The position numbers were made by a program, and so were the translations under genes. A DNA stretch of 59,701 nt, filler included, from Jimgerdemannia flammicorona (Eukaryota), in assembly GCA_003990765.1 (NCBI GenBank). It is 3 parts of 3 records of this genome, joined end to end, with 100 filler letters (N's around TTAATTAATTAA, not from the genome) between each part and the next. Parts side by side here need not be neighbours in the genome. Positions count along the whole stretch, not along the records: positions 39,869 to 59,701 come from RBNJ01001839.1; 2 more parts are not named here. The stretch is one strand, 5' to 3'. This document shows positions 18,841 to 59,701 of this stretch, piece by piece; positions within the stretch are counted from its first letter, which is position 1, and every line of letters begins with the position of its first letter. The notes under the pieces are model-generated. The model did not search any database, had not been told where the DNA came from, and saw only the letters and a list, made by a program, of their open reading frames with translations.

Positions 18841-18863
18841 TTGTTCGGAGCACTACTTCTTTA

Positions 18864-36900: not shown

Positions 36901-37729
36901 CTCCAACAAGAATTATTTGCCTGCATGATATACATACTTAATTATCTGACTGCCGCACCCATACTTATTATTAGCTACGCCATTTCTCCAATTATTTCGG
37001 CCTGAAGTTTGACAAATAAAAGCTACCTTAATACATATTTAATGAGCGGTCAAAAGTTGAAGATGAATATAAATTCGAGAAAGGAACTGCAAGTCCACAC
37101 TTGGTAAGCTTAGACGTCGCGGCTCACGATGCTCAGTAGAATCTCTATGCAAATTCGATAATAATTAGGGATATCGAGGAGATTCGAGGGTACGGTACAA
37201 TAGCGTAACTCCCAGAGTCCAGCCTCTAAAGTCTGTCGAAGGTGGGTTTTGAAGCTAGTTTTGTGGGACCTAAAAGTTAACATGGCTTTTGAACACATGA
37301 TATAAGCGCAACGATAACGACGCCGCTTTAGTATTCGATGCAAACCAAGTTGACGTCGTCCAATGAAGATTTTTAATGCATGACATTTTGCTTTTATGAT
37401 AAATTAAAAGTAATTTAGGCGAGAAGCAAAGCTCAGACTGCCGAACATCTAATAGTAACGCTGCCGCTTGCTGGCATAGTTTAATTTTGACATATAGACA
37501 TGATACATTTAGCGACTGACAGCATAGACATATGGAAATACGGCACAAAGTTGAACGAAGTATATAAAAGTCGACTATATATATGTGTATGCATGTTTTA
37601 TTGCTCGACCACAAGACGAAATTATGTATCAGGGAGAAGGCATATTACGTTTCCATTGTACGTCAATTCGAGTATTGAAAAAATATGTAAGAAGCCAGTT
37701 CCCTCAATAAACGTTAAGGTTAACAACAG

Positions 37730-38833
37730 TTATTGCACGACAGGATGCGTTTCCTTGGTCTTGCAGCTGAATATCGTTTGGTTCTGTATCGACATCGAGG
37801 TTGAGGATGGAGTTGGTGCCGTTGCAGTCTCACAAGTTGAGATGTGTCTGCTGCGATAATATGCGCGAAGCCAGTCGATTGGACTATTGATATCATGGAT
37901 CTCCTGGGTGCCACTGTGCTCCATTAGATATTTTCGGTAGTGGTCGACTTCATGGCGCCTTTTGCCACAGAGCTTCGTGACAATATGATAAAGCTGCCTG
38001 TGAGCCTTCCACGCGATCTTATCATCTGAATCGGACAGATTGTTGCACAAACTATCGATGACGGTAGGATAGGTACTGTCCCCGAGACAAGCCCTGTCAT
38101 GTTTTTTGCAACCAGCACACGGAATACCTCCAAAACATCGCTTGGCTTCCTTCTTACACCAACTGCATGCCTTGCCCGGCCCAACTCTTTTCACTTTCTT
38201 CAAGGAGACGTGACGAGGACAGCGCTTCTTCCTACTCGAACAGTCCGGGCATTGCTTGTATTTCATAGGCGGTATTGCGGTGGAAGGTACAGTCGATGTT
38301 GGGGTCGAATCAATTTTAGAGGAAGGTGCCAAAGGAGAATTTTCGGTTGAGATAGTTGGCGATCGACTTTGTGTAGTTTCGTCGACTTGACAGGCAATCC
38401 AAGGCGTAGCAATACGAAGGTCTTCGCTAAATATGCTGGAGTAGTTGAGATCATCGGTTGTGGCGTTGGTTGGATTTCTCCATACAAAGTTGTCACTGGG
38501 CAAATCTACTGGCTGGCCCATTTGGTTAGTTGACTGTGACAGCGTCTCCTTAGTGGGCTCTGAATCGCACAGGAAGTATTCAGGCGGAAATGAGTGAAGC
38601 CCGGCCGTTTGTCGATGATCAGCGGCTTGACTAGGGGCAGTAATCGCCGAAGGACTGGGGTTATTTCTGGAGACGGTCGGGGCGAACGGAGAGATCTTGA
38701 TGAGGGGCGATATTATGTTCATGAACTCCGGTTGCGGTTCAAGTTGGGCTTGGAGGGCGTCCTCACCGTTAAAAAGAGCTAAACACATCGAACAGGTGCA
38801 GAGGAGGCAGGAGGTGTTGGAATAGGAAGACAT
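37730..38833 (-). CDS. Intronless Zn2Cys6 protein, paralogue C
   Basis: CSWCKKEAKRCFGGIPCAGCKKHDRAC; probable start ATG 38833 (MSSYSNTSCLLCTC); ORF open to 38887. Confidence 0.85.
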   Translation of the reverse strand: MSSYSNTSCLLCTCSMCLALFNGEDALQAQLEPQPEFMNIISPLIKISPFAPTVSRNNPSPSAITAPSQAADHRQTAGLHSFPPEYFLCDSEPTKETLSQSTNQMGQPVDLPSDNFVWRNPTNATTDDLNYSSIFSEDLRIATPWIACQVDETTQSRSPTISTENSPLAPSSKIDSTPTSTVPSTAIPPMKYKQCPDCSSRKKRCPRHVSLKKVKRVGPGKACSWCKKEAKRCFGGIPCAGCKKHDRACLGDSTYPTVIDSLCNNLSDSDDKIAWKAHRQLYHIVTKLCGKRRHEVDHYRKYLMEHSGTQEIHDINSPIDWLRAYYRSRHISTCETATAPTPSSTSMSIQNQTIFSCKTKETHPVVQ

Positions 38834-39768
38834 TTTTTTGATAATAGAGGTGTCAAGTGGAGGAAAGGTATGTTGGTGATGTTGCAAGTCTTGGACATTT
38901 ATAGGGTCAATTTGGCGGAACCGGTGCCAAAAAATAATCTTGGTTCCGACGTCGGAGGTAACTTTGTAAACTTTAAACCCATAAATGTAATCGCTTCGCC
39001 AAATGGAGCGATTCAGCGAGATATGTCATTTTAGAACACCCATCGATGACGTCATAAATTTCACCATCCACTCCACGAGACGGTTATGTCACCATGCATT
39101 TTGTCGAGTTTTAGGATCTCGAAATGGTTGGTGTCGATATTGAGATCAGAATCTAACCTCGAATTTCCAACAAGCTATATCATCAGAGTTAAGTTCTTAA
39201 TCACTTGAATTACTAACGCCGTTTTGCGTTTGTTCTTTAATTTCTGATATAATTTGTTATTAAAGCAGTTTCAGTGCACGACTTCTATTATTTCACCTAT
39301 TCGCTTTCCTCGCCTGGTATTAGAGAACCGATTTCTTCTGTAGATAATACCTATCAGTTTATATTTTGAATAAGCAGTTTTATGATGGTAGTGGTATTGC
39401 GAGTTTAAATTATTTTCCAACATGTCGATGCTTGGGGAGGAAAGAAACTGGAACGGAGGTTATAAGGTATGTCTTCTCCAGACTAGATTGCAAAATACCC
39501 ATGGCTTTCTTCATCAGACCTATTATTTTCGGCATTTGTGGTAGACCATTCGGCGAGTTCGGTGTCAGTATTCCGAAAACACGAAAGGAACGGCGGTTTC
39601 CTTTCTGTCACAATCAGCAGAATTCCGTGATTGCTGGTGGCACGAATGTCAACAATGTCGTACTATTGTATAAATGTAGCTTCCCTTCCACCTTGTATTT
39701 TTATTTTTTTTTTATTTTTTTATTTTTGTATAGCTTTTTTGTTGCTGCGGTATATCTCGAATCGAAAA

Positions 39769-39868
39769 NNNNNNNNNNNNNNNNNNNNNNNNNNNNNNNN
39801 NNNNNNNNNNNNTTAATTAATTAANNNNNNNNNNNNNNNNNNNNNNNNNNNNNNNNNNNNNNNNNNNN
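39769..39868. other. Assembly gap with artificial spacer
   Basis: 44 N + TTAATTAATTAA + 44 N. Confidence 0.99.
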
Positions 39869-42700
39869 CATCGCCACCCACCCACCACTTTGCTCACAGA
39901 TCCCTTCCACCAGACGGCGATGTCACCCACCTTGCAGCCCCCACCCAACCCACCACCCTGTCAGCAAATCTGCCACCAACTCCTCCCATCTCAATAACTT
40001 TTCCCGTATCCCTATCTGTTGCCCCTCCTCAAAAACAAAGAGCCAATGTCCAGCCAACCCCACCCACACTGCTACAACCCACCCTACAGTAAGCCACCTA
40101 TTGCTGACACCTCCCACAAGTCTAGATTCCAGATCTTCCCAGCGACCTCTCTCCCCAACTGGTCTCCTTTCAACCCCAAGGCAGTCCCCTACAGCTATCC
40201 AAAAGTCCCCCAGAACCTCACACTCCCCCAGCCAATGTTCTGGCATTTGCACGAAACCCCCAACTTGCCCAACATTATAACACTCCTCACAATCCAGCTG
40301 ACCCCCATCTACCAGATACCCAGCATGGAAGTTCAACATAACATTTCTCCGCAACATTCGCCACCACACTACCCAGAACTTGGGAGGAAGCCACTGCCGT
40401 ACCTCCATACTCCAAGACCATATCCCAGCCCAATCCCACTCTTCACCAATCCCCACCGCCTGCTAGCTACTTGGCCAAAGATCCTGGCCAATGTGCTACT
40501 AACACTCTACTCCATCTCTAATGTCAAACTCAGCTAGTGGAACTCCCCCTAGAAGCAGACAGTCCCATTGCCACATAGCTGGACCCCATACCTCCTCCCC
40601 CTCATTTCTACACCAGCGCAGGCCTATCTGGTGTGCCCCATCGACCACTCCCCACTAGAAGCCCTTATACCATAGCCGTCGGCTTCCATTTAGATCCACC
40701 AAAGAGAGTAGATCCCCTGTGGACCCCCGGGGGGAGACTCTCATCTCCCACACCTTCTTCATCAACAGCACCCAATCTCCACCCTGTAGATCAACAGCCC
40801 TTCTCAACCACCAAGCTCACAGGCAGTGTAGGCACTTGGGGAAATCAACAAGGCCCAGGCCTCCCCTAAGCACTGGCTCGACAAGGGTATCCCAACTGAT
40901 CTAGGCCCTTCTACCAGCCCAAATCCAATCCCTAGCCAGTTTCATCAGCCTCTTCACCACCCAAGCGGGAAAGTCTAAGTGATATACTACATACCACAGC
41001 TTGGGGAACTAGTATACATTCAGAATTGCCACCCTCTCCGCCAGGGAGATGTGACGACCCCCCCAGCCTTTAAGAGCCTCTCCCCAAATGGCCACCCTCC
41101 TCTCTCACCATATCTGTGGTAGGACTGATCCATATATAGAGAGGAAGATATCTAGGTACCACACCACCTCTCCTGTGGGGACAATTGTTCCAATGACATC
41201 CCCTCCCACTAGCCCATTCCCCAGCACCATTGTCTCACACTTATGCCAGTTGAGCTTTGCTCCAGAGTATACCTCATACCACTCCACTCTTTCCTGAAGA
41301 GCCTCTACATCTGCTATTGATCCAAGGCCAACTACCATATCATCTGCAAAGGCCCCCACCTTCCACTCTATGTCATATACAGAGAGCCCAGTCACCTTCT
41401 TACGGATCCTGTCCATCAAAGGTTCCAAGGAGAGTGCATAAAGGATAGGGGACAGCAGGTCCCCCTGAGGGACTCCTCTCCCCAAGAGGAATGCCAAACC
41501 CCTGTGACCATTACACATTAGTGCCGCTCGACTCCCTTCCAACAAACTCAACATAGAGGCCCGAAACTGTGGCGGAACGCCAATTCTGTCCAGTACCTTG
41601 CCCAACCAAACCTGCCAAACATGGTCATAGGCCTTCTCTTGATCCAAGAAAACCAGTCTCCCATCCAGTCCATAGGCCCAGGCTCCTTCAATAATGCCAT
41701 GCACCCAGGCAGTTCCATCTCTGATAAGTCTACCACCTACAAAGCCCCACTGCTCCTCTCCCAGCACCTGTTGAGCAACCTTCTGTAGCCTTGCAACAAT
41801 TACCTTAGCCACTAACTTCCGATCCATATCCAGCATCATGATTGGCCTCCAGTTCTTCCAATCCTCATGCCGGCCCTTATCTTTGTACAATAGGGCAACC
41901 AGCCCTAGGTCCTGCTCACCAACCCACATGCCATTCAGAAGAACATAGTCACAGAGGGCCACCATCTCACCCAGCATCCCTGGGACTTCCACCATCTTCT
42001 TCCAGAAGTCCCACGGTAACCCATCCTCTCCTGGCACTGTCCCAAGCTTAGTTGCTGCCAGGATATCTTATATCTTCTCCTCCTGGACAGGTAAGGTCAA
42101 GTCACCCAGCCCCTCTACCTGTGGTGGCTCCCACTCTTCCAGTGTGTCACCAATCACCTCTGCATCAGTACCCCCTTCTTCCTCACTCCACAGACCCCGC
42201 CAATTCTCCTTCAATACTCCCAGGATCTACTGCGTGCCATGCACCAACTCTCCCTCAGCATCCAAGATCCCATTCCACCTATGCCTCACCTGCCTGGCTT
42301 TGAGGAGCCTAGACAAGTATCTAGTAGGCCACTCTCCCTCCTCAAGCCCCTGCCATCTAAGCCTGACTGCCATACCTCACATATGAGTCTCCTCCTCCTC
42401 TCACAACACCTGTTGCAGTTCTACAACCTCCAATTTTGCCCTCACTAATCTCCAATCCTCCACCTCATCAGACGCAAGCAAATCTGTCTACTCCAACTGC
42501 AATCTCCTCAGCCTATTGGAGGCAGACTGTATTCACCTCCTCCTCCTTCTCCCTGCCTCCCTACCAGCTCCTCCCCAATAAACCCTCACAGCCTTCTTCA
42601 ATCTCATCCAATGGACACCTACAGATAAACCCTCCTACCTCCAAAATGGAATCTTTTCCTATATGTCTGCTACCCATGAGTCCCACAACCCCTTCTCGGC
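39869..42700 (-). mobile_element. Non-LTR retrotransposon ORF2 (L1/Tx1-like RT + C-terminal zinc finger), degenerate
   Basis: PGEDGL, KNWRPI, LDQEKAYD, GVPQGDLLSP, FADD and a C-terminal CEEC...EH...C; stops present. Confidence 0.92.
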
Positions 42701-42783
42701 CAGCAGGGAGGAGTTAAGGGGGTGGGATCATTGTAATTATATGGAATAGATGGGTATTAATAAAGGAAGGGAGTCCAAGTGAC

Positions 42784-42838
<55 letters not shown>
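42700..42838 (+). mobile_element. Retrotransposon 3' end with poly(A) signal and poly(A) tail
   Basis: G-rich segment, AATAAA at 42759-42764, 52-nt A run at 42787-42838, abutting an interrupted Gypsy RT. Confidence 0.75.
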
Positions 42839-42841
<3 letters not shown>

Positions 42842-45800
42842 ATCTTATTAAGTACTTGATCAATACACATATAAAGACTTCTATCCTTTTTATAGACAAA
42901 GAGGATTGGTGCACTATATGGTGATTTGGATAGATAGATGAGACCTTTACTTGTTAGTTTCACTAATTATTCCTTGAAGATCTCTAGTTCAGATTAGGCT
43001 AATCAGTAGATTTTATAGTAAGGAGAGTTAAAGTCAAGAATAGTTTCAATACTATATTCTACTGCTCAGACTAGTGGTAGTTCTTGGAGTTCATGGAAGA
43101 TGTTTTTATATTTCTTGAGTAATTCTTGGAGGTTGTCTTCTTCATTATTCTCATCTTTCAAAAGTTTTGAGAGTTCTTCATCATCCTTTTCTAGGATCTC
43201 CTTAACTGTATATATGTAGATATGCTGGTCTGGTTTTCAAATCAGCTTCTTCATTTGAATAGCAGAGATAATGTCACACCTAGGCTTCAATTTCTTTTTG
43301 GTATACTTAGATTATAACTGATACATATTTCTTAGAGAAATTGTATTGGTTTGCTAATTGAGTGGAGATTTTCCTGAATAAGCCAGGATTTTCTGAGAAT
43401 AAGATTGTATCCAGAGAGGTATATAATGTAGAAGGTTTGTCTTGTGATATAGTTTCCAAGTTGTTTCCAAGTTGTAGAAGTACATATATTTTTGTATATC
43501 TTAGAGAGTTTCTGTATTATTCCATTACTAAATATAGCAATGTTTTCTTTTGGATTTCTTTGTATCTTGAGGTAGAATTTGTTAGAAGTTTCTTAATCAA
43601 GGTAACATTTGCTTGCCCTACTATCAATCAGGACTTCAATTATATTTTCTTCAATTTTTCTTTATAGGCAGATATATTCTGTATTGGTTTCTTACCAGGT
43701 AGTAATTATTTCAGAAGTAATTTCTTCTTTTCAATCTTGTACTTCTCTATCTTTATCATTAATGTTCTTGATTTCCTCATCTCATCATTCTGGGATAGTT
43801 GGCTTATACTTCTTGAATTTAAGAACATATGTAATATATTCTGAAACAGTACATCTTTATTCTATGGAGATATTATCCTATAGAGATATATCTATCAGTA
43901 ATATACTAATACTATTTCTGGTCTCAATTTTGAGATTCTTCAATATGGACAATCTTTTGTATCTTAGTCTCTCCTTGGTCTTATCAGGGTGCTTTTCTGT
44001 TGATCTAAAGGCTTTCTTTCTTCTATTGAAAAGTGATAGGTCATTTTTTTCTTCTCTTTGAGATCATTATATATTACTTCAATAATAGCTTAGACAATTC
44101 ATTTTCTACATGTAATTTTGACAGCCTTTTGTCCAGTATTATATATATAGTAAAACCTTAATTTCACCTTTGAATTCTTGGTCTACAACTTCTCTAGCTA
44201 TGCAGAGTCTTTTTTTCTTGGCTAGGCTACTCTTTTCTGTAAGACAGATATAGGTTTCTTTTAGGACCTTTATTTCAATACCTGTGCTAATGCTTACTTG
44301 CTTGTCTTGTTTGATGGTTACTTCTATACTTGAGTAGAGGTCATAGCCAGCATCAGATTCATTATCTTGTCTGAGATCTTTACAGTAATATAGAATCTTT
44401 TAATCTTGATTTTCTCAGAGATTTCTTTATAATTATCTTCTATTATAGTAAAAGTGTGTGAGGAGGATGGTCCTTTATTGGTGTTGGTCTTCTTAGGATA
44501 TTTGTAAGATATGTGTCCTCTCTTTTTATAATAGAAATATACGTCCTTCTTTATAAGTTCTTCTATTTCCTTATTGAACAGTTTCTTAAATCCTCTTTAT
44601 AGTCTTATGGATTCATTCCAGAGTTTATACTTCTTCTCAAATTGGTATCATTTATCTCCTTTATTATTGCTTCTATTGTTTCTTGACCTTTGGACTGTAA
44701 GGATGATATGTACTCAGGTAATAGCTTATCCTAGGTATTATTATTCATATGGACAATCATAGAGTCATCCTTGCTCATAGATTTTTTCTGATAACTATCT
44801 AGAGATGACATCAAAGAAATAGATAGCTTAGGTTCTATTTTCTGTCTATTCTCAGTAACTATATTCTGCTCCTATAGTATTCAGGAGAGTTTTGAGTCTT
44901 GTAGCAAATGCTTTAAGATCTTCTTTTTCATTATTATAGAATTATAGATTCTTGAGCTTGGTTCTGGCTTTGGTAATGTAAGCAGAGCTACAGAACTATT
45001 GAATTGTTAACTCTTTTAGCCCTATAGTAGCTAAGTGGGCTTTATAGTCAAGATTATTATCATCTCCATCACTTGTAAGGATTTTGATATAGGTTTCCCA
45101 AGTGAGAGGATGTACTAGTAGATTGTACTACTACTGGATAGCTGTTTCTATCAAATATGTAGTGATCTTTTTCACCTGCAAGCTTATAATTGCATAGAGA
45201 TCTTCAATCTTATAGTGTATATTATTTTCAAGAATATTATCTGGACTTTAATTATTATTTCAACTATTAGTATGATAGTTAGTATTGACTTGACCTATGA
45301 ATTTTATTATTTGGTCTACTTTATCTTTAAATAAAGTAAGCCAGAGGCCTTTTGTAGACTTGTTTGTTTTGATACTAAGATAAAGAGCTTAAGTGAGTAT
45401 GGCTACTTAATCAGCCAATACTACTATCTTATCATCTGTTGATACTATTCTACTGTTTCTGTTATCTATTTAGTGAGATGGTTGAGGTTCTTCTCTCTCT
45501 ATTATTGTAAGGTATTGGTCACAGTTTGGAGCTGATTCTTTTATAATATTACTAAGATAGGTGAGCCTGTAGACTGGTAGTTTCAATGAGATGATTGTTA
45601 GATCTGTTGTAATCTTAGATAGATTTAATATCCTTAATAGTAGTTCTATGATAGTACTAGGACCACCAATATCAGGTTTAGGGGTTTTTTCAATTATTCT
45701 CCTTGATCTTGATACTATAAGAAGGGTTTTACTAGATCTAGTAACTTGTGGTTCTTATCACTAAATTATTATTGCTTATGTATGAAGAATTCAGTAGTAG

Positions 45801-46264
45801 AAGTGGGATTTCTTTTAGTAGGTATAGTATCTCTTATAGTTCAGAAAAGCCTTGGCTTTATAGTAGCAATTGTAGGAGATAGTTTAGAAAATGTTCAGTA
45901 ATAGCCTCATTGGATTCTTAGATATATTTTTTATAGAAGTGACTACCAACTAGGTTATTGAATCTCTTCTTGAGTTCTGGGATATAGGGGACAACTTTGT
46001 TGAATATAAAAAAGGTGTTGAATATCTTTTAGATGATTTTGTTATTGAGTTTATCAAACTTCTCTTGACTGGTGTGGGTTTCAGTTTACTCAGTGATAAT
46101 TCTGTTGGCTTCTTCAGCTTGAGTCTAAAGAATATCTAAGGTAAAAATATTTCTTGGCTATTGCTATTAATATTAGTGATATTGATCAGTATCTAGTTAT
46201 TTGTAGTAGATTCTTGAAAGAGGATTGCTCATAAGTAGAGAGAAACCATCTGCTGCTACCAAAT
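42839..46264 (-). mobile_element. Second, heavily decayed dUTPase-bearing Gypsy element (PBS-gag-dUTPase-PR-start of RT)
   Basis: PBS TGGTAGCAGCAG at 46261-46250; knuckle remnant ~44505-44545; dUTPase remnant DAGYDLYS..ISTGIEI..EKSSLA..VVDQEFKGEIKV at ~44150-44360; RT start SKSPYSAPILFV..MCID cut by the poly(A). Confidence 0.85.
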
Positions 46265-47399
46265 TATAATAAAACTATATATCAATAGAATTACTATATT
46301 GCAAATAATAAAGATAACTATTGGCCCTAAGTTCTGGATTCTTAAGAAAGTGCTAAATTCTGAATTATCTATTATAGCAAAGTTTAAGTATCACTTTTAT
46401 ATCTTGTCTGAGTATAGGAAGGCCATACTTATATCTCAAGTTGATTAGACTCAGAATTATTAACAAGTTAGATCTGAGGTTTCTGTAATAAAAATACTAC
46501 TTTATTCTTATATTTGGAGAAAATAGAGCTGAGATTACAATTTACTCAGTATAGAGAGTATTTATATATATTCAAAGCTATGACTAAATATAGTGTACTG
46601 TATGTCTATATATAGTTATATTACTTTGAGTAACTATGACTACTAGTCAGAAATTCTATAGGAAATTTCATAGAAATTTATATAGGAATTTCTATCAAAA
46701 ATTTCAGAGGCTTATAATGATTTATTATACCTTAGCTCAGATATATATATAGCAATTGAAAATAATTTTGCTTTATTACTGAAGAGGTAGGTACCAGTTA
46801 TTATACTTATTGTTACTAATCTATAAATAATATTATATATCAATACTAACTGAGATATAGAGATTATAATAGATATATTTATATAGAATTTTTGATTTTC
46901 TTTTTTATTAAAATATATTATAATAGTTAATCCGAATTAGGTATATAAATTAGAGAAATAGATATTTGATTATAGTACCTGAATCTGATTTTCAAATATA
47001 GTATAGTCTTATAAATAGTAGTTATTTCACAAATATCAAGATTTAATAGATGTTAAATTTTGACAATTGTTAAAATTTCACAGATATTAAGAATCTATAC
47101 ATACTTATAAAAGGTGACTCATAGAAAACATAGTCATATACATATAACTTAGCTATCTTATAGCTAGTAAACTTATATAAATATCTCTAATATCTAAAGT
47201 AAATAAACTTTAGATTGAAATAGTTCAAAGTAAAGAAAAAGCAGATATACTTTAAACTCACCTATTTCTATATTCTAAAGACTCTATAGAGTTAAAAAAA
47301 AAATAAGTTTTAAAATACAGAAATCTGACATACTTCTGAGATTAGGTATTTACTATATTATAACTTAGTACCTATTGATAATTTAAGATAAATATCTTA

Positions 47400-49200
47400 C
47401 TTTCAAGCTGAATAATGAATAACTACTACTACCTAAACTATACAAACCAAACCAAAATATTTAGATAAGATAGATATGAGACTATCAGTATTTTATAAAT
47501 ATACTTCTAATAAATCAATCATCAACTTTATTGACAATTTTGAGCAATATATTACTACATATAAGGACTCTGATAGTAAGATAGTAAGTAGTCCTTAGGC
47601 TCTTCAGTCTCTGAGGTCCAGCAAGAGTAGCATTCATAGCTATAATCTATATAGAAGTAGATAATAATATTATACTAGTAGTACAAAAAACCAGGCTCCA
47701 AACTATCTACTATATAGATGAGATTAAACAAGTTCTGAAGGATCAGTTCAATATAATATATTAAGGAATAAGTAAAGATCTAAATATATTCTATACTAGA
47801 ATCCAATATTAGATAATTCTTACTAATTATACTAAAGCTATCTAAGATCAAGTAGCCAAAGTAATCTTTATGAAAGAAATTTACCTAAAGATAGCTATAG
47901 TTATCTACTTATTATCAGTTATCCTAGACCTATAACAGAAGATCACCTATGCTTAGTAATACTAAATAGCTAGACATTCACAAGATTATATAATAGAAAG
48001 AGTCACTAGAGTTATAATTAAAGTATCTAAGATAATTAGTATAATTTCTACTATAATAATCAATTAAAATATACTATAGTCAAAAGCTATAGAATAAGAG
48101 AGAAACAGTGACCCTATGGAGAAACTTGCTAAAAAGTTTGTTATAATGACTATATCTAGAAGATATAGTAAAGAAAATCAGAGAAAGAGACTATTATCTA
48201 GTTTAGAAATTTGCTACTATCTCAGATAAGAAGAGAGATATCTACTATACCTATGAAAAAGAAGGTCACTACTTATATAAATATATAAGTGAGACCAAGC
48301 ATAAGGTTCAACCAAACAATACTAGTTAAAATAAAGAATAGGTCAACATTATTATCTTCAAAGAAATTGAAGAGTCTGATGAAGAAGAATGGGAGACCTA
48401 CTCTGCTCAGACTATTAAGAAAGATATCTACAAAAAGCCCTATAAGAGACTATTAGAAAGATCTAAGAAGAATTTAGTAAAAAGACAGATAAAGATTATT
48501 ACAGAAAATCAAGCTGAAGAAATAGACCAAGATATAGAGCTTGAGCAGATAGTTTAAGATATCATCCAAGAAACTACTCCAGTCCTAGCCAGTGAAAAAG
48601 AAAAGAAGAAAAAGCTTTACAAGACTAAGACCTTTAAGTATAATATCTTCAAGGACCTTAGCCAACAAAAGGTCAATATAATCTTTAGCCAGCTGGTAGA
48701 AATTCCTATATTTAGATAGCAAATGAGATTTGGACTTACCAAGACTACTAAGAACCAAGGTTGAAAGATAACTGAGACTAATAATATTTAAAAAGACTCT
48801 AGAGAAAAAAGTAAAGACAATTACAAGACCTCTATCTATATAATCTGCCAGATTAAGAATAGAGTCTTTGAAGTCATCATTGATACTAAAGTAAGAGAAT
48901 ATCTCTTCAATAAGAAGACAGTAGACTATCTAGATTAGGAGGTTAAAGAAGTAACTAAGTTAGTATTCATTATAGTAGATAGTATAAGAGTCTTATCTCT
49001 GGAAAAGATCTGAGATATTTTTATTAAGTTTGAAAGAGTAATTATTTTAGTAGATATGATTATAACTAATACTACCAACTATAACATCCTCATCAGCAAC
49101 TAGTAACTTCATAAAGTTAGAGCAATAATTGATCTAAATATCCAAAAAATACTATAGATAGAAAATATGAATTTTTATTAATATTAATAAAGGAGTACTT
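47400..49200 (+). pseudogene. Highly decayed Gypsy gag-protease relic
   Basis: Knuckle remnant near 48242-48285 (YYTYEKEGHYLYKY), FKYNIFKDL..KVNIIFSQLV, protease remnant FEVIIDT near 48868 and YNILISN near 49080. Confidence 0.6.
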
Positions 49201-49429
49201 TCTAAGATAGAGGAAAAAGAAAGTAATAGAGAAAGCTTATATGGTAACTACTTAGAAAAAGAAAAAGAAAGTTAGATAGATGAGTAAAGAAGACTAATAT
49301 AAGAAGATTGTTAAAGAATATATACTATAAAGAGTCTGCTCCCATGAGATCAGAATGTACTATATAGAGTATATCAATGATTACTACTAGTATATCAGCA
49401 GAATTAAGAATATCTATCACTAGTGTTTT

Positions 49430-49740
49430 GCAATCTGAGCTGACCCATATATATATTTAACTTAATCCAGAATTATATATAACTTATCTTTAATCTGAGC
49501 AAAAAATTTACATCACTTATCTTTAACCTAATCTGAAAATATATATCATCTGTCTTTAACCTAACTCAGAATTATATATCACTCATCTTTAATCTGACTC
49601 AGAAATATATATTACCCATATTTAATCTGATCTGAATTTATATATAACTCATCTTTAACCTGATCCAAAAAAATATATATATAACTTAACTCTGACCTAC
49701 ATATATTTAACCCAATATAGATCTATCTTTAATCTGCTTT
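49430..49740. repeat. Degenerate ~37-bp tandem repeats, probably DNA-transposon subterminal repeats
   Basis: Repeated ATCTTTAA(C/T)CTGA..CAGAA.TATATAT units. Confidence 0.6.
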
Positions 49741-49919
49741 TAAGCTATAAGATATAATATATATATATATATTTAAAATATATATTTAGAATAAATAAAT
49801 AGAAATATAATTAGAAATCATAAATCAAAATAAAATTAGAAATAAATAAGAAGTAAATCAGAAAAATAAAAAACTTATTAATATAAACAGATTTTATGCT
49901 TCATTATTATAAATCAACT

Positions 49920-50330
49920 AATTCTTCTCCTTCTCATATTCTGAACCATCTTCTTTTATATATTCCTCCTTATATTCTAAACTACCTTTCTCTATATTCT
50001 CCTCCTCTAGGCTGACCTCTTTAATACTAATCTCTATTTTATTCTTTACATCAATCTTCTCATATCTTCTATACTAATTGTGCTGACCTCTCTCATACTG
50101 ACCTTCTCTATGTGACTTTCTAATACTGACCTCTCTAATACTGACCTCTCCTATACTGATCTTCTCTATACTGATCTCTTCTATACTGACCTCCCCTGTA
50201 CTAATCTCTTCTGTATCAATTTCTCTCATACTGATCTCTCTACTGATCTCTCTGCTAGCACTAATCTCTTCACTGGTACTGATCTCTTTTATCTCTTTAT
50301 CTCCTCTACTATCATCTCTCTTTTTCTCAA
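49920..50330. repeat. 15-bp degenerate tandem repeat (ATACTGACCTCTCT-like)
   Basis: Directly visible periodicity; produces the repetitive EIS-rich ORF at 50074-50346. Confidence 0.7.
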
Positions 50331-50524
50331 TATCAACCAAATACACAGTCTACTATCCATTAGTTATATATAAAGCAGTTTGTTATTCTTTACTAATACT
50401 TATTCAAATATGGTCAACAGTATTTTATAATGATAATTCTATCTAAATAACCTCACTTATTCTATACTTTGATATTTATCTTAAAGCTGATATAGTATAA
50501 TAAATGTTCTATATTTTTTATATA

Positions 50525-52597
50525 TAGTGAGGGACAAAACCTTACCAATGTTTTATTATTTTTAAATCTTAATCTATTGTAATCTAAATATATATGAATA
50601 TTATTAAATTCATATTTTAACTAATAATAAAGAAGGTCTAGAATGAAACAGTATTTATTTTGCTAAATTTGTATAATATTTCTAAAGTTATGACTCTTTT
50701 AAGTAAACCACTCATTAGTAAGGTTTTGTCTCCCACTATTTTTTCAATAGTTTTAATTCACTAACTCCAGCTCTATACTTGCTCTGCACCTGAAACTTCA
50801 CCCCTTTATTCTTTTTTGATATACTTTTTCCTTCCACACCTCTTACAATGAAAAAAATCTCAATTGAGTATCACAATTGTATCATCAATACCCTGAAGTC
50901 CAGTATATTGGTAAGCAAGATTGTGAAATAAATAGGTGTCAGCACCATGACCATTTCCTATATATGAAAAGAGTTCTGTAGTGGTGAGGTTATGTCACCA
51001 AAAGGAGGTTGCCCATATACATTCTCAGCTCGAGATTAAGTATGGATTGTTTACCAGATTATCATAAGCAAGGTGGAAACTACAACCGAGGTCACAAAAA
51101 CACTCCAAGAAGCTGACAAAATACTTCAAGACAGACTTCAAGATGATGGCAAACCTTCTGTAAGTATAAAAATAGTATGGAGAATACTGAAGAGGGCCAG
51201 CCTGAAGGCAATCATGAAGCAGAAGAGGCCCAGATTGCTCAAATGACATATCAAGGCTCATTATGAGTTTGCTCTTAAATACAAAGACTGGACAATTGAG
51301 GACTAGAAATAAGTCATCCTCTCCAATAAAATGAAGATCAACTGTCTTGACTCCAATGGTAGAAAATGGGTATGGAAAAAGCTGAGAATGCCATACAACA
51401 AGTATTATATGACCAGAATAGTAAAATTTGATAGCAGATCTGGGGATATATGTATAACATACAAGGAGGTCGATTATATCTATCAGATCAATACTAATAA
51501 TCTGGAGATGTATGATATATAAGGAGGTTGGTTACATCTGTCAGATCAATAGTCACATAGATGTAGAGCTATACTAGAGTATCCTTGATAACAAATTGCT
51601 AGAAACAATCAAATATTACCATATGGATAGGAAAAGATTAATTTTTCAGTAAGATAATAACTTAAAACATATGTCAAAAAAAGCCTGCCAATGGTTTACT
51701 GATTACTTGATTCATTTGTTGAGTTGGCCAGCATAATTCCCCAATCTGAATCCAATCAAACATTTATAGTGGTAACTTAAAAAACAACTTAATATATACA
51801 CAGAGCTCTCTAAGAGAATACAGGATCTTTGGAAATATGTAGAGCAGGAATGGAATAGGTAGTGCTCCCAATAAATTGAATCGAATCGAATTTGGCCCAA
51901 ACTTGATTTGATTCGATTGAATCAAGGGTCCAATTCGATTCAATTCAAATCGAATCAAAGGTTCAATTCAATTTGAAGTTCGATTCAAACCTTAATTTTC
52001 AAAATGTAATAACTCAACGAAAACTCATCCAAATTTAATGTATTTTAGCTTGTTAGATTCACCGTATTAATGTGATTCTAACAAGCTAAAGTACGTTAGA
52101 TTTAGATGAGTTTACACTGAGTTATTGCATTTTGAAAATTAGGGTTTGAATTAGACTCTCAATTTGATTCGACTTTTGATTCGATTCGAATTGATTCGAA
52201 TTGAAAAATCCCCAATTCGATTCGATTCGAATTGATTCAACTCATTTGGGAGCACTATGAATAGGATTCCAAAGGATGTTTATATTGGTTTAATTGAGAG
52301 TATGTCAAGGAGGGTTGCTGCTGTATATAAGGCAAAAAGAGGCTATACTAAATATTAAAATGATCAATAAACTGATTAGTGATATATCAGGGACAAAACC
52401 TTACCAATGGTTAGTTTTCCTAAAAGGATTATAACTTTAGAAATAATTATTCATATTTAGCAAAATATATACTGTTTAAAAGCTTTAGACTTTCTTTATT
52501 ATTGGTTAAAATATAGATTTAATAGTATTCATATTTAGACTACAATAGGTTAAGATTTAAAAATAATAAAACATTAGTAAGATTTTGTCTCTCACTA
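50525..52597 (+). mobile_element. Tc1/mariner transposon with ~210-bp TIRs, degenerate
   Basis: TIRs TAGTGAGGGACAAAACCTTACCAATG / CATTAGTAAGATTTTGTCTCTCACTA; TA TSDs at 50523-50524 and 52598-52599; transposase relic 50848-52357 (FALKYKDWT, IFQ.DN.LKH, WPA.FPNLNPIKHL, GYTKY*). Confidence 0.9.
51860..52257. mobile_element. hAT-family MITE (398 bp) inserted in the Tc1 transposase
   Basis: TAGTGCTCCCAA...TTGGGAGCACTA termini, 8-bp TSD GGAATAGG/TGAATAGG (7 of 8), TTCGA repeats and a long internal palindrome. Confidence 0.9.
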
Positions 52598-53531
52598 TAG
52601 TTTTCTATTGCTCTTATGACTTCTTGTCTCAGTTGGTCATCATATACTCTCTTTATATATTTATTAGTTATAACAAAAGTATCTAATATCTAATTTATGG
52701 TCTTTTCTCTATAAGATTTAGAATATCTAGAAAATTGGTTTAGCAATACTTTCAGATAGTGCTTGGACAAACTTGATAACAAAAATGATAACTGTAGCAA
52801 GATTTGCACTCCAGCCCAGACTTAGAAACTAGAGGATATATATATTTTAAATATTATTAGGAAAAAAAAAAAAAAAAAAAAAAAAACTAACTTTTTTGAG
52901 CTATATTATTGAGATCTGATGGGGGATCTAGTACTTATAGACTGGTAGTAAGCTGGTAGTTAGGAAGCTAGAGATCTAGGAGAGCAAGCTGTATAATAAT
53001 AAACTAATAGTTAGAAAGCTGAAGATCTGAAAGAGTAAGCTATATAGTAGTGAGCTAGTAGTTAAGCTAAAGATTGGAGAGCTGAGAGTCAGTGAGCTGA
53101 AAGTCAGTAAGCTTAACAATCTGAGTGTCAGCAAGCTTGGCAGACTGGGTGTTGGCAAGCTAGACATCTTTAGAGCACTGAGCTTTAGGATGGTAAGCTG
53201 AGGAGTATTAAGCTTAGAGTCAGAAAGCTGAGAGATCTTATAAATACTTATTGGCTTATTAGTTATATCTATATATTTTCAAAATAATAGTAAATTAAGT
53301 AAAGTAAAGCAAAGGATAAGGTGAAGTGAAGGATGAGATAAAGTAAAGAATAAGATAAAGTAAAGAATAAAGTAAAGTAAAAGATAAGAGACAAAAGTAA
53401 GCTTTTGATATATTAAATATTCAAAAGCTATAATATTTTTCAAAAGCTCTTTTGAAATCTCTTCAAATTTTTTTTCAAAACTCCTTTCAAAATCTCATAT
53501 TATTTGTAATCTAAGAAATAAGAGTGAGAGA

Positions 53532-53620
53532 TAGTGCTCTCAAATAAATGATTTAAATCAATTCAAAGTAAATATATATAATATTTGAATTGAGTTAATT
53601 TGATTCAATTTGAATATCAT
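53532..53620 (+). mobile_element. Decayed hAT-family left end
   Basis: TAGTGCTCTCAAATAAAT followed by AATTC/TTTGA repeats like the MITE end; no clear right end or TSD found. Confidence 0.5.
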
Positions 53621-54749
53621 TAGGAAAAATAACTTTAGTTCACATTTATTAGTTTATATTTATAGTTATTTAGATTTATATTATTTAATATAGTTCAAGT
53701 TTATAGCTATTTAGTTCATATTACTATATATTTCTATCCATGGACTTGCTATTTAGTTTATATAACTGTATCTTCAAAAAAACAAATCTGTTAGTATCTA
53801 CTAGTTTGTATCTGCAGTTATTTAAATTTATATTATGAAATTATAGTTTATATATTGTACTTTCTATCTATATTCTTAGTAATTTAGTGCAAAAATTTGA
53901 GGCTTAGTTTGGAACTGGCAAGCATGATTACCCAGATAAGAAAAATGATAAATAAATAGTATTTATTATAAGAATAGATCTGTGATTCAACTGTTCTAAT
54001 TTCCCAAATAATGTTTTTAATATTATTGATAAAATCTAGATATTTATTACTATTGTCATGTAATAGTTGCTGAGTCCTTCAAATATGCCAGATTCTCTTC
54101 AAGATGTATCTCTTAGACTAACTCAAGTTTGTTATAAGTAAGTTCTTATTGGAGTGCCTTCCCAAAGTCTTATAGTCCTCAAACTTCTTATCTTTAACTG
54201 TCTTGTTATCTCTTAGATTGCTTGCAAGGAAGTATGTGTAAGTGAAACCAGAACTAACTTTATTTCAGAGAAAATAAAAAAGATATTTATATAAAATATA
54301 ATTCAATAGTTGCTAAGATATAGAGCTAAATATAAATTCTAATAACTAAAACTACTAAGTTCCAGAGTTGGCACTGATGGTTGTACAGGTTCAGAATACT
54401 GGTATAATTTAGTGTTATATCAGAATACTGGTACTAGAACAATTTTGCATCACCTCAGAATGCCAGTGCTGGCATTATCTAGTATTACATCAAAATACCA
54501 GTACTGGCATTATTCAGTATAACAAAGAACTTAGAGCAGAAAGTTCAGGATCATGGGGGCTTCATCCTTATTATTACTAAAGGAGATGAGATCTACAAAT
54601 TCATCATTTTCACATACTTCAATATCATGTGAGATGATGTTATTGCCAATGATGTCATCACATTCAGCAGGGAAATCAGGGGCTCTCCAATCTATGAGGT
54701 TCTCTTCCACAAAATAGGAAACAAATGTAAGGTCTTAGAGAGGTCTAAC

Positions 54750-55975
54750 CTAAATACTTGGGCCTTGAAATACTGAGATCAATCCTTGCAGAAATTGGTC
54801 TGGGTTGTCTTGGAGGATGGAGTACCAGAAGTCTTCTACTTCATCACTATTGAGGGTGATAGTGGACTGGGCTTCTGTAGTCACCCTGGCTTCTAGTATA
54901 TTGATACAGTGAAATGACAGGTCTCTGAAATCTGAGACTCTAATATACTCCAAGTTAGGGATTGACCATAGTGCATGTCTGAAGATCTGGTGGATCTTCT
55001 TAGCTGTCCTTGCCTCATGTATATCCATGGGAGTGGTATCTTGTAGCTCTTGAGGGCTGGCCTGTGGGAACTCTCAGCAGAGGAGGTTTTCTATTTCGTA
55101 CTCCTGCCACATTTGGAGGTATTTGGTAGCAATAGTGATCCTTATTTCCATTTCATAGTGGTAGAGAATAAAGTGATAAGGGTCTGCAGTACCCAGGTTG
55201 ACACTGGGAGTCCTTCTTGAGCAGATCTTTATAGCTCTTCTGATGTCTTGGAATATCCTTTCCTCAACTGAGATGCCTTGGTGATTCCTTGACCTTGAGG
55301 TTTGACAGACAGCAGGTATTTCATTTATAGTAAGTCTTTGAGCTATTTTGGAATTGGTGGTTCTTATTGGTTACTATTACTACAGTTCCTTAATCCTTCT
55401 TTTATATTCTTCAGGATGCTTAAACTGTGGTCACAATGACTCACAGTTGGTCATCATTGCTTATCTCATATGTCATATAATCTTCTTGTGCTCTGATCTA
55501 GTGGCTTGTAAGGAAAGGCTGTCTCCTGTGCTAATGTTATCATTCTGAGGTCACCATTACATCTTCCTCCTGAATAAGGATCTTCTCGAGCATCCTTATT
55601 CATTGGTCTAGTCCTGAAAAATTTGCTGATCCCATATCTCTGGCAAGGGGTTGAAAAGTGGTGTTTATGGGCTGGTATCTTTCCTTTGTATTTTGGTGTG
55701 ATGGTGAAGGGTCACTCTCTTCATATAGAGCAAGGGCCTGATTCTGATCTTGACCAATCAGTTGATAGTTCAAACTCCTCTGACTTCAAAAGTCTCATGG
55801 ATGAGTAGTTGCCAGTGCCGTATCTCTTAGAGAATGGTCCAGACAGATAGCCTGCTGGTCATGAGACATGCTGTTATGATTCATGGACTAGAATCTCATG
55901 GGTGGTCATTATGTTTTGCTTCTCTTATATAGGTTCATAGTACTTCTTGAGTCTGTTCCTATATACCATGGTAGG
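54750..55975 (-). pseudogene. Gypsy relic: integrase C-terminus followed by an accessory ORF
   Basis: PTMVYRNRLKKYYEPI* at ~55975-55927 resembles the VHGNRLK end of Gypsy integrases; a downstream frame at 55370-54750 has a single internal TGA over about 200 codons. Confidence 0.6.
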
Positions 55976-57096
55976 CAGTATACATATTATTATAATATAA
56001 GAGATATAGTTAAAATAAATTATTATTGAATTAAATTGAATTAAATTAATATAATTTTGAAATATTTTAAATACATATTATTTTTATTATAGCTCTTAAT
56101 TTAAATTTAATAAATAAGATATTTTACTTAAAAATATTATATTATATTTAAAAATAATATTATAGAAAATAAATAAATTAGCTTATTTATTATTTATTTA
56201 TTATCTTTAAATAAAAGAACAATTATACAAACAGCTATATAAACTAAGATATATTTACTATTACTATTACTATTTCTCTCTGATATAATTTTCTTTTTCT
56301 TTATAATAAGAAGTTTACCAAACTATCGAGTATTTTGCTTATTTTGCTAACTTTGAAAAATGGCAAAATTGTAAAAAAGCTAATATGTATCAATCAAAAT
56401 AAGAAAATATATTCTTTTATTACAATATCAATATAAGGTCACAGAAGACCAAACAGAGTAAATTTTCTATGTCTTAGATTGCTTCATTTGCTTAATATTT
56501 GCCCGCCAGTCCGAAAACAATGTTGATTTATTTTTCGGCTCCGATGCATCTTGTAGGCGCACACGATTAGAAAATTTGTGTTGTGTTGAATCTCTTCAAC
56601 GTGTAACAAACATGTTGGTCATATTAGATTGCTCCCTTTGTGGCAACGTACATGAAAAGGTTTATTTTGAACGAGGTTGATAGAGAATGAAATTTGACAA
56701 AATCCGTCACGAGATTGTTGTGATGTACATGTGACTGAAGGGTGTGGCGTACCCGACTCGGAAAAACAATATATATAAATAAAAAAAATAAAAAAATAAA
56801 AAAATAAGAAATAAAAATAAATAAATAAACAAGGGGAGAGGGGTGATTCGAAGGGAAAGGAAACTGGGACGAGAAAAAACGAAAACAAAAGTCATTGAAT
56901 CAGAAAGGCGTACATACAAGAACGAGGACGGAAAAAAAAAAAGGATTTTGATGGTGAGTCGCATTCATTCAGCTGAAGAAGTGAGTTTCGAAATAATAAT
57001 CTGTACACGATCCTCCAAAGGAAGATCAAACGTTTCGGAACAGTGCATTAGCGCAAACACGCATGGCACATCATAGGCGCCGATGAGTCCTTGTAA

Positions 57097-59110
57097 TTAC
57101 GCAAGCATGAGGCATTTCTTTTGAATCATTGTCAGCGGCGGTTGGCCAACAATCGATGAAGCTCTCCCTGCGTCTTGCGATTGAATCCTGGCCACCTTGA
57201 AATGATCATCGACGTATGACGTGTGAACAGCGCTAGGATCCCTCGGCTTCCTGCTTATTGGTATCTTGATCTTGATCGCCTTCTGCTGCTTCGAGTTGTT
57301 GACCAGCGCGGCGTTTTGCTTCGCCAACTCGCCAAGGCTGATCGTCTTGGATTCGTTGCTGAGCGATCGGTCGATGACCACGACTGTCCCACGGAGCTTT
57401 TCAATCTCGGCGTCCTTGCTTGCGATGATGTGCTTCAGCTTGTCCGCCTCCTTGTCGGCGAAGTCGCGCAGGGACTCGTGTTGCCTATTCTTGGCAGCGC
57501 ACTGGTCGCTCCACTCTATGACTGCATTCTGCAACATTGTCACCTCGGCACGCGCCTGTTCGAGGTCCATGACCATACTTTCGGATTCCACCGCCTCTGC
57601 ATCAACAGCTTTCTTGAGGCCAATGATCTCGGCATCCTTGAGGGTGATAGCTTTTTTCAGTTCCTCCGTTTCCACGGTCTTGGTCGATACGGCCTCCTCG
57701 AGTCTGTGAATGTTGGCGTCCCGGATGGCCAATGCTTTCTGCAGGCCTATGATAACAGCGTCCTTTTCCACATTATCGGCAAGAAGTTCTTCGATTCTGA
57801 CGGTATCTCGCCGGGCAGCTTCTTCCGCAGCTTCGAGTGCGGCTGATTTGTCATCATCGGCCTGGCGGTATGCTTTGCTCTCGACTTCTAAGAACTGGAT
57901 CCTCGAGTCTTGGTTGGCGACGTTTCGTTGTAAGTTTTCGACAACCAGTTTCAATGCGGCTATGTCGATAGTAAGGTCGCTACGATGTTGGTTGGGGCTC
58001 TCTGTTCCCATGTGCGGCTTTCGTTGGTCGCATCCATCGTGGCTCTGTCCTTCGTGATTGTTCGCGTGCAGGACGGAATCTCCCGACTTGTTAAAGCACA
58101 CGGTACAGCCTGTCGGATGGTGGTGGAAATAAATTATACCCATGAATGTTTGAGGCGGACACAAATAAAAGCAAGCAACCCAAAATATCGTGATGATACA
58201 TACTACGGTCATTGGTATGAATCATCCGAATATGCCGTGTTAGATCCTGAGAGCTCTTGAATACTTCGTAGCACGATTTACGGTCACAAGCGACGCGGTA
58301 GCGATACATCGAATCGGTGCCAGTCGAATGAGGCTTGTCGTCCACGGTAATTCTGGCGGTTGGATTTATGTCGTGATCGGATGCGCCCGAATGCCGGCAG
58401 TTCTGAGCCTCTAGTGTGCAGCGCACAATCTCCTCTGGGGAAAGGTGCCTGTCGTCGGAGTTTCGTGGGAACGAAGAGCTTGAAAGATCCGTTTCGTCTC
58501 GCGTCTTTGCAGCTCGATATTCCATAATGCCTCGCGTGTCACGCACATCTGAGGAATCGCGACGAATCCTCAAAATACCAGTGCTGTAGGTATTTGGTTC
58601 ATCGCGCGTCCTTGCATGTTGGATTTGAGTGCGATGTTCGAGAGCACTTGACAAGCTGGGGCGGTCTGAACAGTTAGGAAAAGATTGGATTAGAGACATA
58701 TGGCGATCGCCAAAGCTTATCCCCTCCCTGCAGAGGGAAAAAAAAAAAAAACAGTTTTTCTACTAACATTCTTCAGCTAAATGCCAGGATCGGATATGCG
58801 TGTCTAGATTTTCGGACCGTGTGAATGTCGCGCCGCATTCGTCCCATGAGCAGGTTTCCTGCCATACTGGAGCACTTTGTGAGTTCGTCGGTTCATTTGC
58901 AATGCTGCTGTCATGGCGGCGGATATCTGTGATGTCGCGCAGAGCCTTCTTGGAAGCCCTTGAGGACTCGGGGCCGTCGCTTGGAACATACGGATTTTGC
59001 ACATTTCTATCGCACATGAATAAGCCAGGATGGGAACGCAGAGGTAGAGCTGGATGGGATTCTTGAGGCGACTGTGCCTCGGTAATAGAGTCCTCGGTAA
59101 TAATGTGCAT
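57097..59110 (-). CDS. C2H2 zinc-finger and coiled-coil protein, at least 3 exons
   Basis: Exons 59110-58768, 58665-58204 and 58109-57097 splice in frame with GT-AG; two fingers (CSWDECGATFTRSENLDTHIRSWH, CDRKSCYEVFKSSQDLTRHIRMIH) and a long heptad region. Start uncertain. Confidence 0.75.
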
Positions 59111-59701
59111 GGTTTGCAGGTTAGGAGGGGCTGGGTGGGCAAAGGAGGGAGGCAGTGCGATGGTGGCGTAGAAATTGCCCTGAGCTTTTGTTGATTTAAG
59201 GTTTGCTGATCATGCCTTTGGAAACAGGTTCTCCCGAGTCGTCCCAATTTATGATTTCAGATCGGTAACCTGTCAGGTGAGCATTTCGTCATCGCTCAAC
59301 AACATCTACAAGAACAAAGTAAACCCTTGTTTATAGTCACACCAGTTTAGAGTGTATCCCATCAAGCCACGAATGAATTGACAATGCCTCTCTCCTCTTA
59401 ATCAACAGTTCCCGCAATGTTTGTGTATAGATAATTTGACTTTAACACAATGCGATCTGAGGGTCTGAGGGAGATCTCTTTGCAAACCATCGTCGAGAGC
59501 TCCCATCAAACATTGACGCATCTCACCCATTATCGCTGCATCTCCGCCACTTTTCCAAATTCAGATATTGCTGTGTCGCGCTCTTAAGTTTCGATCTTTT
59601 CATCCTGTAGCTCGACGATTTCCATCAGTACATTGATATTGCGCTGAGGCTCTCAAATCTTTTGCGAAAAATTCCTCCTTCGATTTCGCGGCTTTTTTTT
59701 T

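Follow-up and report, generated by a model that had tools for sequence, protein, structure and literature searches.

The window analysed here is a stretch of 59,701 nucleotides (filler included) from Jimgerdemannia flammicorona (NCBI GenBank assembly GCA_003990765.1), made of three parts joined end to end, and all positions are counted along its whole length. In the last part, derived from RBNJ01001839.1, the minus strand at 54531-55319 carries a decayed open reading frame (ORF) lying in a repeat that is probably a retrotransposon's long terminal repeat (LTR). The extent of this gene was set by alignment with its relatives, which form an unnamed protein family (family 2 below; members in Table 1); residues 1-271 of one of them, P0002, match 55319-54534 in tblastn with an E value of 1e-115. 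An earlier reading of this DNA (the initial annotation) had placed an ORF at 54750-55370; there is indeed one there, but the actual gene has the limits given above. At the place equivalent to the start codon (55317-55319) ATG has become ATA, and three in-frame stops, TGA at 55074-55076, TAG at 54750-54752 and TAA at 54735-54737, stand where the relatives have W or R, Q or R, and Q, respectively, ahead of the closing TAA at 54531-54533. Measured against the consensus of at least 75% of the homologues, 34 residues differ, 31 of which are explained by C>T/G>A changes alone, while the reverse change fits none of the 34. The observed/expected ratio of CpG is 0.03 in the ORF and 0.04 in the block 54001-56000. 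The sequence at 54531-55319 is a pseudogene decayed by G:C to A:T changes. Across the window, in blocks of 2 kb, the CpG ratio ranges from 0.00 to 0.56 in the transposon blocks (1-20000 and 40001-56000) and from 0.97 to 1.31 in the genic blocks (20001-40000 and 56001-59701), a pattern that looks like repeat-targeted cytosine methylation followed by deamination rather than classic CpA-directed repeat-induced point mutation. C-to-T changes at CpG would have cost the gene its start codon and added its three stops, the same decay as in the other transposon stretches of the window. TpG and CpA are raised wherever CpG is low across the window.

Four proteins match the frame of the ORF, with E values of 1e-87 to 2e-36 and 73-84% identity. 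These relatives come from short JGI/ENA contigs (720-2375 bp) and are labelled 'hypothetical protein' or unnamed. A profile search of 1.84 billion protein representatives gave five matches, the only new ones being P0008-P0011, and a metagenome scan reduced 93 pattern matches to a single locus, L001, whose 1535 bp consist only of an intact ORF of 291 residues and flanks of 375 and 284 nt. P0009, P0010, P0011 and the L001 ORF make up a distant subfamily, 29-47% identical to the near one. Family-2 proteins are acidic overall (net charge -20 to -27), whereas the net charge of the first 60 residues lies between +1 and +8 in the full-length members: P0002 (+8) has a clearly basic head there, the L001 ORF (+3) and P0010 (+1) a weaker one. 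The conserved core, W-x-EYEI ... AKK-x-HQ-x-F ... IP-x-L-x-YV-x-V ... LS, is predicted to be helical, and the acidic tail has DLISF/DLITF-like motifs with LNFLL at or near the end. As read from their sequences, the intact relatives are proteins with a basic N-terminus, a putatively helical conserved core and an acidic tail bearing hydrophobic motifs, and no domain that is known. The function that we favour for the product, by inference, is that of a small regulatory or adaptor protein, which would be made from the 3' part of the element RNA.

What surrounds the ORF was examined with contigs from three soil-metagenome runs of one study, aligned to 48000-59701 (shares 0.18, 0.04 and 0.00); these were the only sequencing runs listed, none of them of RNA. 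In one of these runs, X1, 2110 short contigs fall on this interval with 80-99% identity, and their summed depth is 600-1030 in the bins of 53865-55819, 137 in the bin 55820-56210, below 30 on 48000-53864 and about zero on the neighbouring genes at 56211-59701; such depths are summed across organisms and represent neither a copy number nor a single genome. Where the X1 contigs depart from the window sequence, they mostly do so by A>G and T>C, in keeping with decay on the side of the window copy. The contigs stop or diverge at 55979-55982 and at 54053, placing the ends of the repeat about 660 nt before and about 480 nt after the ORF. On the plus strand the unit starts with TGTCATG (54054) and finishes with GTATACA (55984), so that it has TG..CA ends. 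Seven contigs break at 54053 and then go on in one agreed sequence. On the ORF strand their junction reads ..ACATGACA-A-CTTGGTGCCCATTGG, to be compared with ..CTCTTACA-A-CTTGGTAGCAGCGG at the junction of the 5' LTR with the primer-binding site (PBS) of element 1, a Gypsy element elsewhere in the window. The end of the unit in the seven contigs is ..ACA-A-CTTGGTGCCC and that of the element 1 LTR is ..ACA-A-CTTGGTAGCA; the PBS-like stretch that follows, A-CTTGGTGCCCATTGG in the contigs versus A-CTTGGTAGCAGCGG in element 1, is absent from the window copy. The contig pile-up, the TG..CA ends, the PBS-like junction resembling that of element 1 and the transposon-like low CpG ratio together argue that the unit at 54054-55984 is an LTR carrying a sense ORF, and it is called LTR-2 here.

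One may ask whether the ORF belongs instead to a common host gene family with many copies, of which it would be a decayed paralogue without any link to transposons, the repeat being a gene duplicate and not an LTR. The window shows no pol, target-site duplication (TSD) or second LTR that would speak against this, and all the relatives lie on the short contigs mentioned above, with no genomic context, even L001 offering only its ORF and short flanks. We nevertheless consider it quite unlikely: the contig pile-up has sharp ends on either side of the ORF, the unit has TG..CA ends and a continuation that matches the LTR/PBS junction of element 1, and its CpG decay is like that of the transposon stretches and unlike that of the adjoining genes. 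In the initial annotation the ORF was read as an additional, env-like gene of a Gypsy relic, on the 3' side of its integrase. Other Gypsy relics do exist in the window (Table 1), yet no tool result supports the env-like reading, which is almost certainly wrong. Pfam searches of ORFs of at least 70 residues and of six read-through frames of 51000-57100 found no integrase, reverse transcriptase (RT), RNase H or chromodomain, tblastn with the gag-pol of element 1 gave no match from 45535 to the end of the window, and upstream of the ORF on its own strand, beyond 55984, there is AT-rich low-complexity DNA followed by CpG-normal genes. Of the two placements proposed at the outset, the one that put the other ORF inside an LTR of element 1 is correct, whereas the one that put the present ORF downstream of an integrase fails, for no pol match exists in 51000-57100. 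LTR-2 would stand alone in the window, either as a solo LTR or cut off just past its 3' end. The minus-strand relic at 42859-45535 was also considered as the element to which LTR-2 would belong as 5' LTR, and this was rejected: about 8.5 kb of insertions would be needed between the two, and no 3' partner or PBS was found.

The LTRs of element 1 (LTR-1) are 92.4% identical to each other, 152 of their 155 substitutions being transitions. Between them are found dUTPase, protease (PR), RT, RNase H, integrase and chromodomain, in this order and with the dUTPase domain between gag and protease, in a coding region that is split into many ORFs. The ORF within LTR-1, interrupted in both copies, has one intact relative, P0007 (247 residues, 65% identity, E 4e-87), the start of which corresponds to the Met at 6444. 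The LTR-1 protein, with a net charge of -36 to -40, is without a basic head and more acidic than family 2. Searches with either protein returned little. Pfam at its curated threshold gave no family for the window ORFs under study or for P0001-P0003; a PDB sequence search gave no match at E<=1 for A4, the eight-member family-2 alignment on which the family-2 hidden Markov model (HMM) is based, and a best E of 0.53 for A5. Among 173 candidates for longer or fused relatives of the family-2 ORF, none reached E<=0.01, and in viral-contig scans the patterns of the two families matched 96 and 49 stretches, none of which encodes a relative. The ESM Atlas had no match at or above 0.9 for P0002 and no usable one for P0007, its structure rows giving TM scores of at most 0.33 with models whose predicted TM score (pTM) is 0.15-0.17; a wide structure search by VIA-align with the family-2 model had a best Z of 4.9, with single long-helix matches only.

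Given the LTR-like behaviour of the repeat at 54054-55984, the two ORFs occupy the same kind of place: each is in the sense orientation, inside an LTR and ahead of a TATA-like box. By analogy with element 1, where the order is ORF, TATA-like box, AATAAA, LTR end and PBS, the LTR-2 gene would lie in U3, and, should these boxes act as promoter and poly(A) signal, both ORFs would ride at the 3' end of the element RNA. The 10-mer TATATTTAGC is common to both LTRs, 34 and 43 nt before the TATA-like box; it was set aside as a meaningful likeness, being judged too likely by chance in AT-rich DNA. At the DNA level, comparison of LTR-1 with LTR-2 or L001 gave only short, low-complexity, non-collinear matches.

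The initial annotation had aligned the two ORFs without gaps and derived from the alignment a shared motif. Its translations of 6342-6482 (plus strand) and of the minus-strand frame of 54750-55370 are correct, and the alignment exists, with 12 identities in 47 positions and a BLOSUM62 score of 30. The motif does not rise above chance, however. Between the LTR frame of 285 residues (6243-7097) and the 206-residue frame of 54753-55370, the Smith-Waterman score is 37, against 33.2±5.0 for shuffled sequences, 21.7% of 2000 shuffles reaching 37, and the best path differs from the register first proposed. A 47-residue window with at least 12 identities occurs in 6.3% of 1000 shuffles, and the observed maximum, 13, lies elsewhere. 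Either frame used in tblastn against the window at E<=10 finds itself only, plus the other LTR copy in the case of the LTR frame, and BLASTP between intact relatives of the two families has a best E of 0.15. In the window copy, the proposed pattern ends in I and has F at [YF]; in at least 75% of the homologues these two residues are T and A. Of the two changes, that from T to I needs only C>T/G>A, and that from A to F is one of the three left unexplained. In the same register, comparison of the LTR stretch with intact relatives gives 7-12 identities. The upstream resemblance of YYQI to HYEM is not collinear with the rest, the profile alignments pairing YYQI with EYEI, 19 residues further on. 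Nor does the window bear out the selected function that the motif had been taken to imply: all its copies of either ORF are pseudogenes, and it therefore offers no sign of selection.

What stands at 54531-55319 is probably a dead accessory gene that a high-copy LTR retrotransposon carries in its LTR; it would not be an env-like gene placed after an integrase, and the pair motif by itself is at chance level. Several observations weigh against this conclusion. There is no second copy of LTR-2 within the window, and the PBS-like 15-mer has two matches there at 3 mismatches where 1.2 are expected by chance, so that the LTR assignment rests on the metagenome contigs; no tRNA genes were found in the window. 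No TSD was found around 54054-55984 (TAATA versus ATAGT), and the binned depth shows no sharp lower boundary (53865-54053). The missing TSD and second copy fit a truncated or rearranged LTR-2 and leave the assignment inferential. The TATA and AATAAA calls, on which placement in U3 rests, are pattern matches in AT-rich decayed DNA and only indicative. As for the two ORFs being alike by chance, an HMM of the distant subfamily scores the 5' copy of the LTR-1 ORF at 9.8 bits, a value reached by none of 4000 shuffles (maximum 7.5) and in none of 40 replicates with a shuffled window (750 non-LTR-2 pieces; maxima 1.7-9.2 and 1.9-7.5). Since this score is beyond all shuffles, the likeness may be real.

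Table 1. Features of the window and their places in the two LTRs (LTR-1, 2028 bp; LTR-2, 1931 bp)
Feature	Position in window	Strand	Position in LTR	Basis and remarks
Decayed ORF, unnamed family of ~250-340 residues (P0001-P0006, P0008-P0011, L001 ORF)	54531-55319	-	LTR-2, 666-1454	tblastn and homologue alignment
LTR-2, high-copy repeat unit of ~1931 bp, probable solo or truncated LTR	54054-55984	-		Metagenome contig depth and ends
TATA-like box TATATAAATA	54284-54293	-	LTR-2, 1692	~238 nt past the ORF stop; pattern match
AATAAA of LTR-2	54259-54264	-	LTR-2, 1721	Pattern match
Element 1, structurally complete 10.6-kb chromodomain Gypsy element with dUTPase	5846-16423	+		LTRs, TSD, pol domains
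5' LTR of element 1, 2028 bp	5846-7873	+		Followed by A-CTTGGTAGCAGCGG (PBS-like); TSD CTAAC
3' LTR of element 1	14396-16423	+		TSD CTAAC after it
LTR-1 ORF, 5' copy, 318-codon frame	6243-7199	+	LTR-1, 398-1354	In-frame TGA 6384-6386 and TAA 7098-7100
LTR-1 ORF, 3' copy	14793-15749	+		Four in-frame stops
TATAAA of LTR-1			LTR-1, 1543	Sole one in the 5' copy
AATAAA of LTR-1			LTR-1, 1665	
LTR-1 stretch aligned by family-2 profiles to the conserved core	6210-6497	+		Takes in 6342-6482
Gypsy relic, integrase	351-1802	-		tblastn with element 1 gag-pol, Pfam
Gypsy relic, RNase H	18875-19402	-		tblastn with element 1 gag-pol, Pfam
Gypsy relic, gag/dUTPase/PR/RT	42859-45535	-		tblastn with element 1 gag-pol, Pfam

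That both LTR-borne ORFs are remote homologues, one U3 accessory gene inherited by divergent fungal chromovirus lineages, is conceivable, though we rather doubt it. Divergence would then have spared a helical core (Y-x-I-G-x-L-L ... D-[LI]-T ... A-[KR]-K ... F ... I-P-x-L ... L-S) and affected the remainder. Run over the 310 ORFs of at least 60 residues, the A4 HMM gives its top non-self score, 4.8 bits, to 14778-15035 in the 3' LTR copy, followed by one of 2.8. Over 792 read-through pieces of 300 residues, the top non-self piece is 5853-6752 (plus strand), in the 5' LTR copy, at 10.1 bits, a score reached by 1 of 6000 shuffles of the piece; the 3' copy comes second at 3.6 bits (75 of 6000), and unrelated pieces stay at or below 2.8. 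With the distant-subfamily HMM, whose members are sequences that the initial annotation never saw, LTR-1 accounts for all of the top four non-self pieces in the window, the 3' copy scoring 6.0 bits (7 of 4000 shuffles) and the top unrelated piece 4.8. Scoring is confined to the ORF frame of LTR-1. HMMER and hhalign agree on the register first proposed and extend it upstream, where YYQIG-x-LL faces EYEIG-x-LL across a 3-residue gap. The position and layout of the ORFs are equivalent in both LTRs, the junction to a PBS-like sequence is alike, and there is a weak C-terminal likeness (EEPLFIDNYFIRDDVID versus QDPTFV-SYFVEENVID, E 0.15). At the sites that differ between the LTR copies within the aligned stretch, the 5' copy mostly has C or G (read by eye, not computed), which would explain its higher score.

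Other results speak against common descent. The probability given by hhalign is 0.93% for A4 against A5 (P 0.059), 0.85% for A4 against A8 (P 0.065) and 4.3% for the distant subfamily against A8 (P 0.0096). An HMM built from the near subfamily, in effect the sequences that the initial annotation had before it, gives 1.2 bits (106 of 4000 shuffles), the piece being eighth among the 792 listed, self included, and the 3' LTR copy reaches only 3.6-6.0 bits with the A4 and distant-subfamily HMMs. When the LTR-1 HMM is used in the reciprocal direction, three non-self pieces (4.9, 4.9 and 4.4 bits) come ahead of the LTR-2 piece (4.0 bits); of the family proteins, eight in all, P0010 is the only conspicuous one, with 2 of 1500 shuffles, against 48 for P0009, 61 for the L001 ORF and 151-542 for the other five. 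None of the five proteins found with family 2 among the 1.84 billion representatives is LTR-1-like. The first 34 of the 47 aligned LTR-1 residues lie upstream of Met 6444, the sole attested start (that of P0007), and three stop codons interrupt the extended alignment: TGA 6384, where the 3' copy has CGA, TGA 6225, which both copies share, and TAA 6159, where the 3' copy has CAA. In Smith-Waterman tests against single members, LTR5/P0009 is reached by 2 of 500 shuffles in the register first proposed and LTR3/P0011 by 2 of 500 in another, the other 12 of the 14 tests being at 0.07-0.65. DNA-level likeness between LTR-1 and LTR-2 is lacking. Moreover, residue shuffles are a lenient null, since they keep composition and ignore helical periodicity. 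The AlphaFold2 models are too poor to superpose (family 2, predicted local distance difference test (pLDDT) 49.8 and pTM 0.42; LTR-1 ORF, pLDDT 31.3 and pTM 0.18), and the Atlas models are equally so (pTM 0.17 and 0.15).

For separately built profiles the results are mixed: the distant family-2 HMM picks out the LTR-1 ORF, the reciprocal HMM does not single out the family-2 ORF, and the hhalign probabilities are low. Likewise, for the proposal of one domain common to divergent Gypsy lineages, the same place in the LTR and the forward profile agree with it, while the chance-level pair and an hhalign probability of at most 4.3% do not. Should the ORFs be related after all, fungal dUTPase-bearing chromoviruses might carry an undescribed superfamily of U3-encoded acidic proteins of 250-340 residues with a shared helical core, a suggestion that we put forward with considerable reserve. 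Its gene would occupy the position of sag or nef in retroviruses, be copied into both LTRs at each cycle and persist in solo LTRs, and the window would supply its first two members, highly divergent from each other.

Several other features of the window are worth recording. X1 contigs also fall, with a summed depth of 2-27, on the AT-rich stretches 48000-49500 and 51910-53864, which would accordingly be repeats common to the soil sample. Close by there is a Tc1/mariner relic at about 51073-51960 on the plus strand (HTH_Tnp_Tc3_2, E 4.5e-06, with a faint DDE_3 in the adjoining frame), and at 50074-50443 overlapping ORFs on both strands with a short repeated peptide unit (EIS...) and one weak pentapeptide-repeat match are probably a tandem DNA repeat, not a gene. 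An uninterrupted ORF of 320 residues at 41108-42067 on the minus strand (RVT_1, E 8.6e-28), with 52% GC and a strong negative GC skew, adjoins the decayed relic at 42859-45535 and possibly belongs to a different, younger retroelement. Four runs of N (44 each) lie at 19836-19935 and 39769-39868, and the latter stretch is where the pol of that relic would continue. Arrays of a 14-nt tandem unit, at 1826-2078 and 19550-19871, flank some 17.5 kb, element 1 included, that split another minus-strand Gypsy relic into its integrase and RNase H parts (351-1802 and 18875-19402). In the CpG-normal genic part, direct repeats that are 83-97% identical (24974-26480/35338-37059, 33450-33749/37771-38070 and 29212-29324/32475-32587, spaced by 10.3-10.7, 4.3 and 3.3 kb) suggest segmental gene duplication, including a pair of ORFs of 416 and 431 residues with a weak Zn(2)-Cys(6) match.

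Retroviruses offer familiar examples of genes situated within, or reaching into, the U3 region of the 3' LTR: sag of mouse mammary tumour virus, in papers on which the term 'LTR-encoded' is used, and nef of lentiviruses. Like these, the ORFs described here are sense ORFs of a few hundred codons, placed in an LTR before a putative promoter box; from that position, an ORF of the sag/nef type comes at the 3' end of the RNA and is copied into both LTRs. They differ in having no sequence or fold likeness to sag or nef (Pfam, PDB and structure search), in that the element in the window is a Ty3/Gypsy chromovirus of an apparently fungal host, and in that their expression and function are putative. 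In LTR retrotransposons, extra genes are mostly situated after pol and before the 3' LTR; for protein-coding sense ORFs within the LTR itself, the textbook cases are a few retroviruses. A literature search for ORFs inside retrotransposon LTRs found none for fungal Gypsy elements. Three systems are nevertheless comparable in part. In bdelloid rotifers, unrelated lineages of LTR retrotransposons have extra ORF3s in common, so that, as proposed here, one type of accessory ORF extends across divergent lineages, and rotifer lineages are described as carrying dUTPase as well (PMC5408684). The ORF3s in that description lie between pol and the 3' LTR and have env-like, GDSL or DEDDy domains (PMC5408684), whereas the window ORFs are inside the LTR, have no known domain and are of unproven kinship. 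Boty/BcGypsy1 of Botrytis cinerea has an additional gene, brtn, which, as reported in PMC8365987, is likewise an extra gene of unknown function in a fungal Gypsy element. To judge from the title of a paper cited there, brtn is antisense; the ORFs of the window are sense and within the LTR, and this comparison is one of descriptions only. Finally, fungal Gypsy elements with a chromodomain, a dUTPase and an 'add. ORF' of unknown function are presented in PMC2864245, and element 1 is likewise composed of PR, RT, RNase H, integrase, chromodomain and a dUTPase domain. The 'add. ORF' is listed there in a figure legend, and the accompanying passages do not place it in the LTR.

Two LTR families are thus found in one window, each with an ORF of 270-320 codons ahead of a TATA-like box and each with intact environmental relatives, which suggests that LTR-borne genes are not a one-off. 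An accessory family shared by the two LTRs is as yet weakly supported. If the ORFs are unrelated, the analysis still brings a useful correction, in that the motif is a matter of chance, the env-like position is wrong and the copies present here are dead. If they are related, they would point to an old, selected accessory function, which might be, for instance, the regulation of the element itself or of its silencing by the host.

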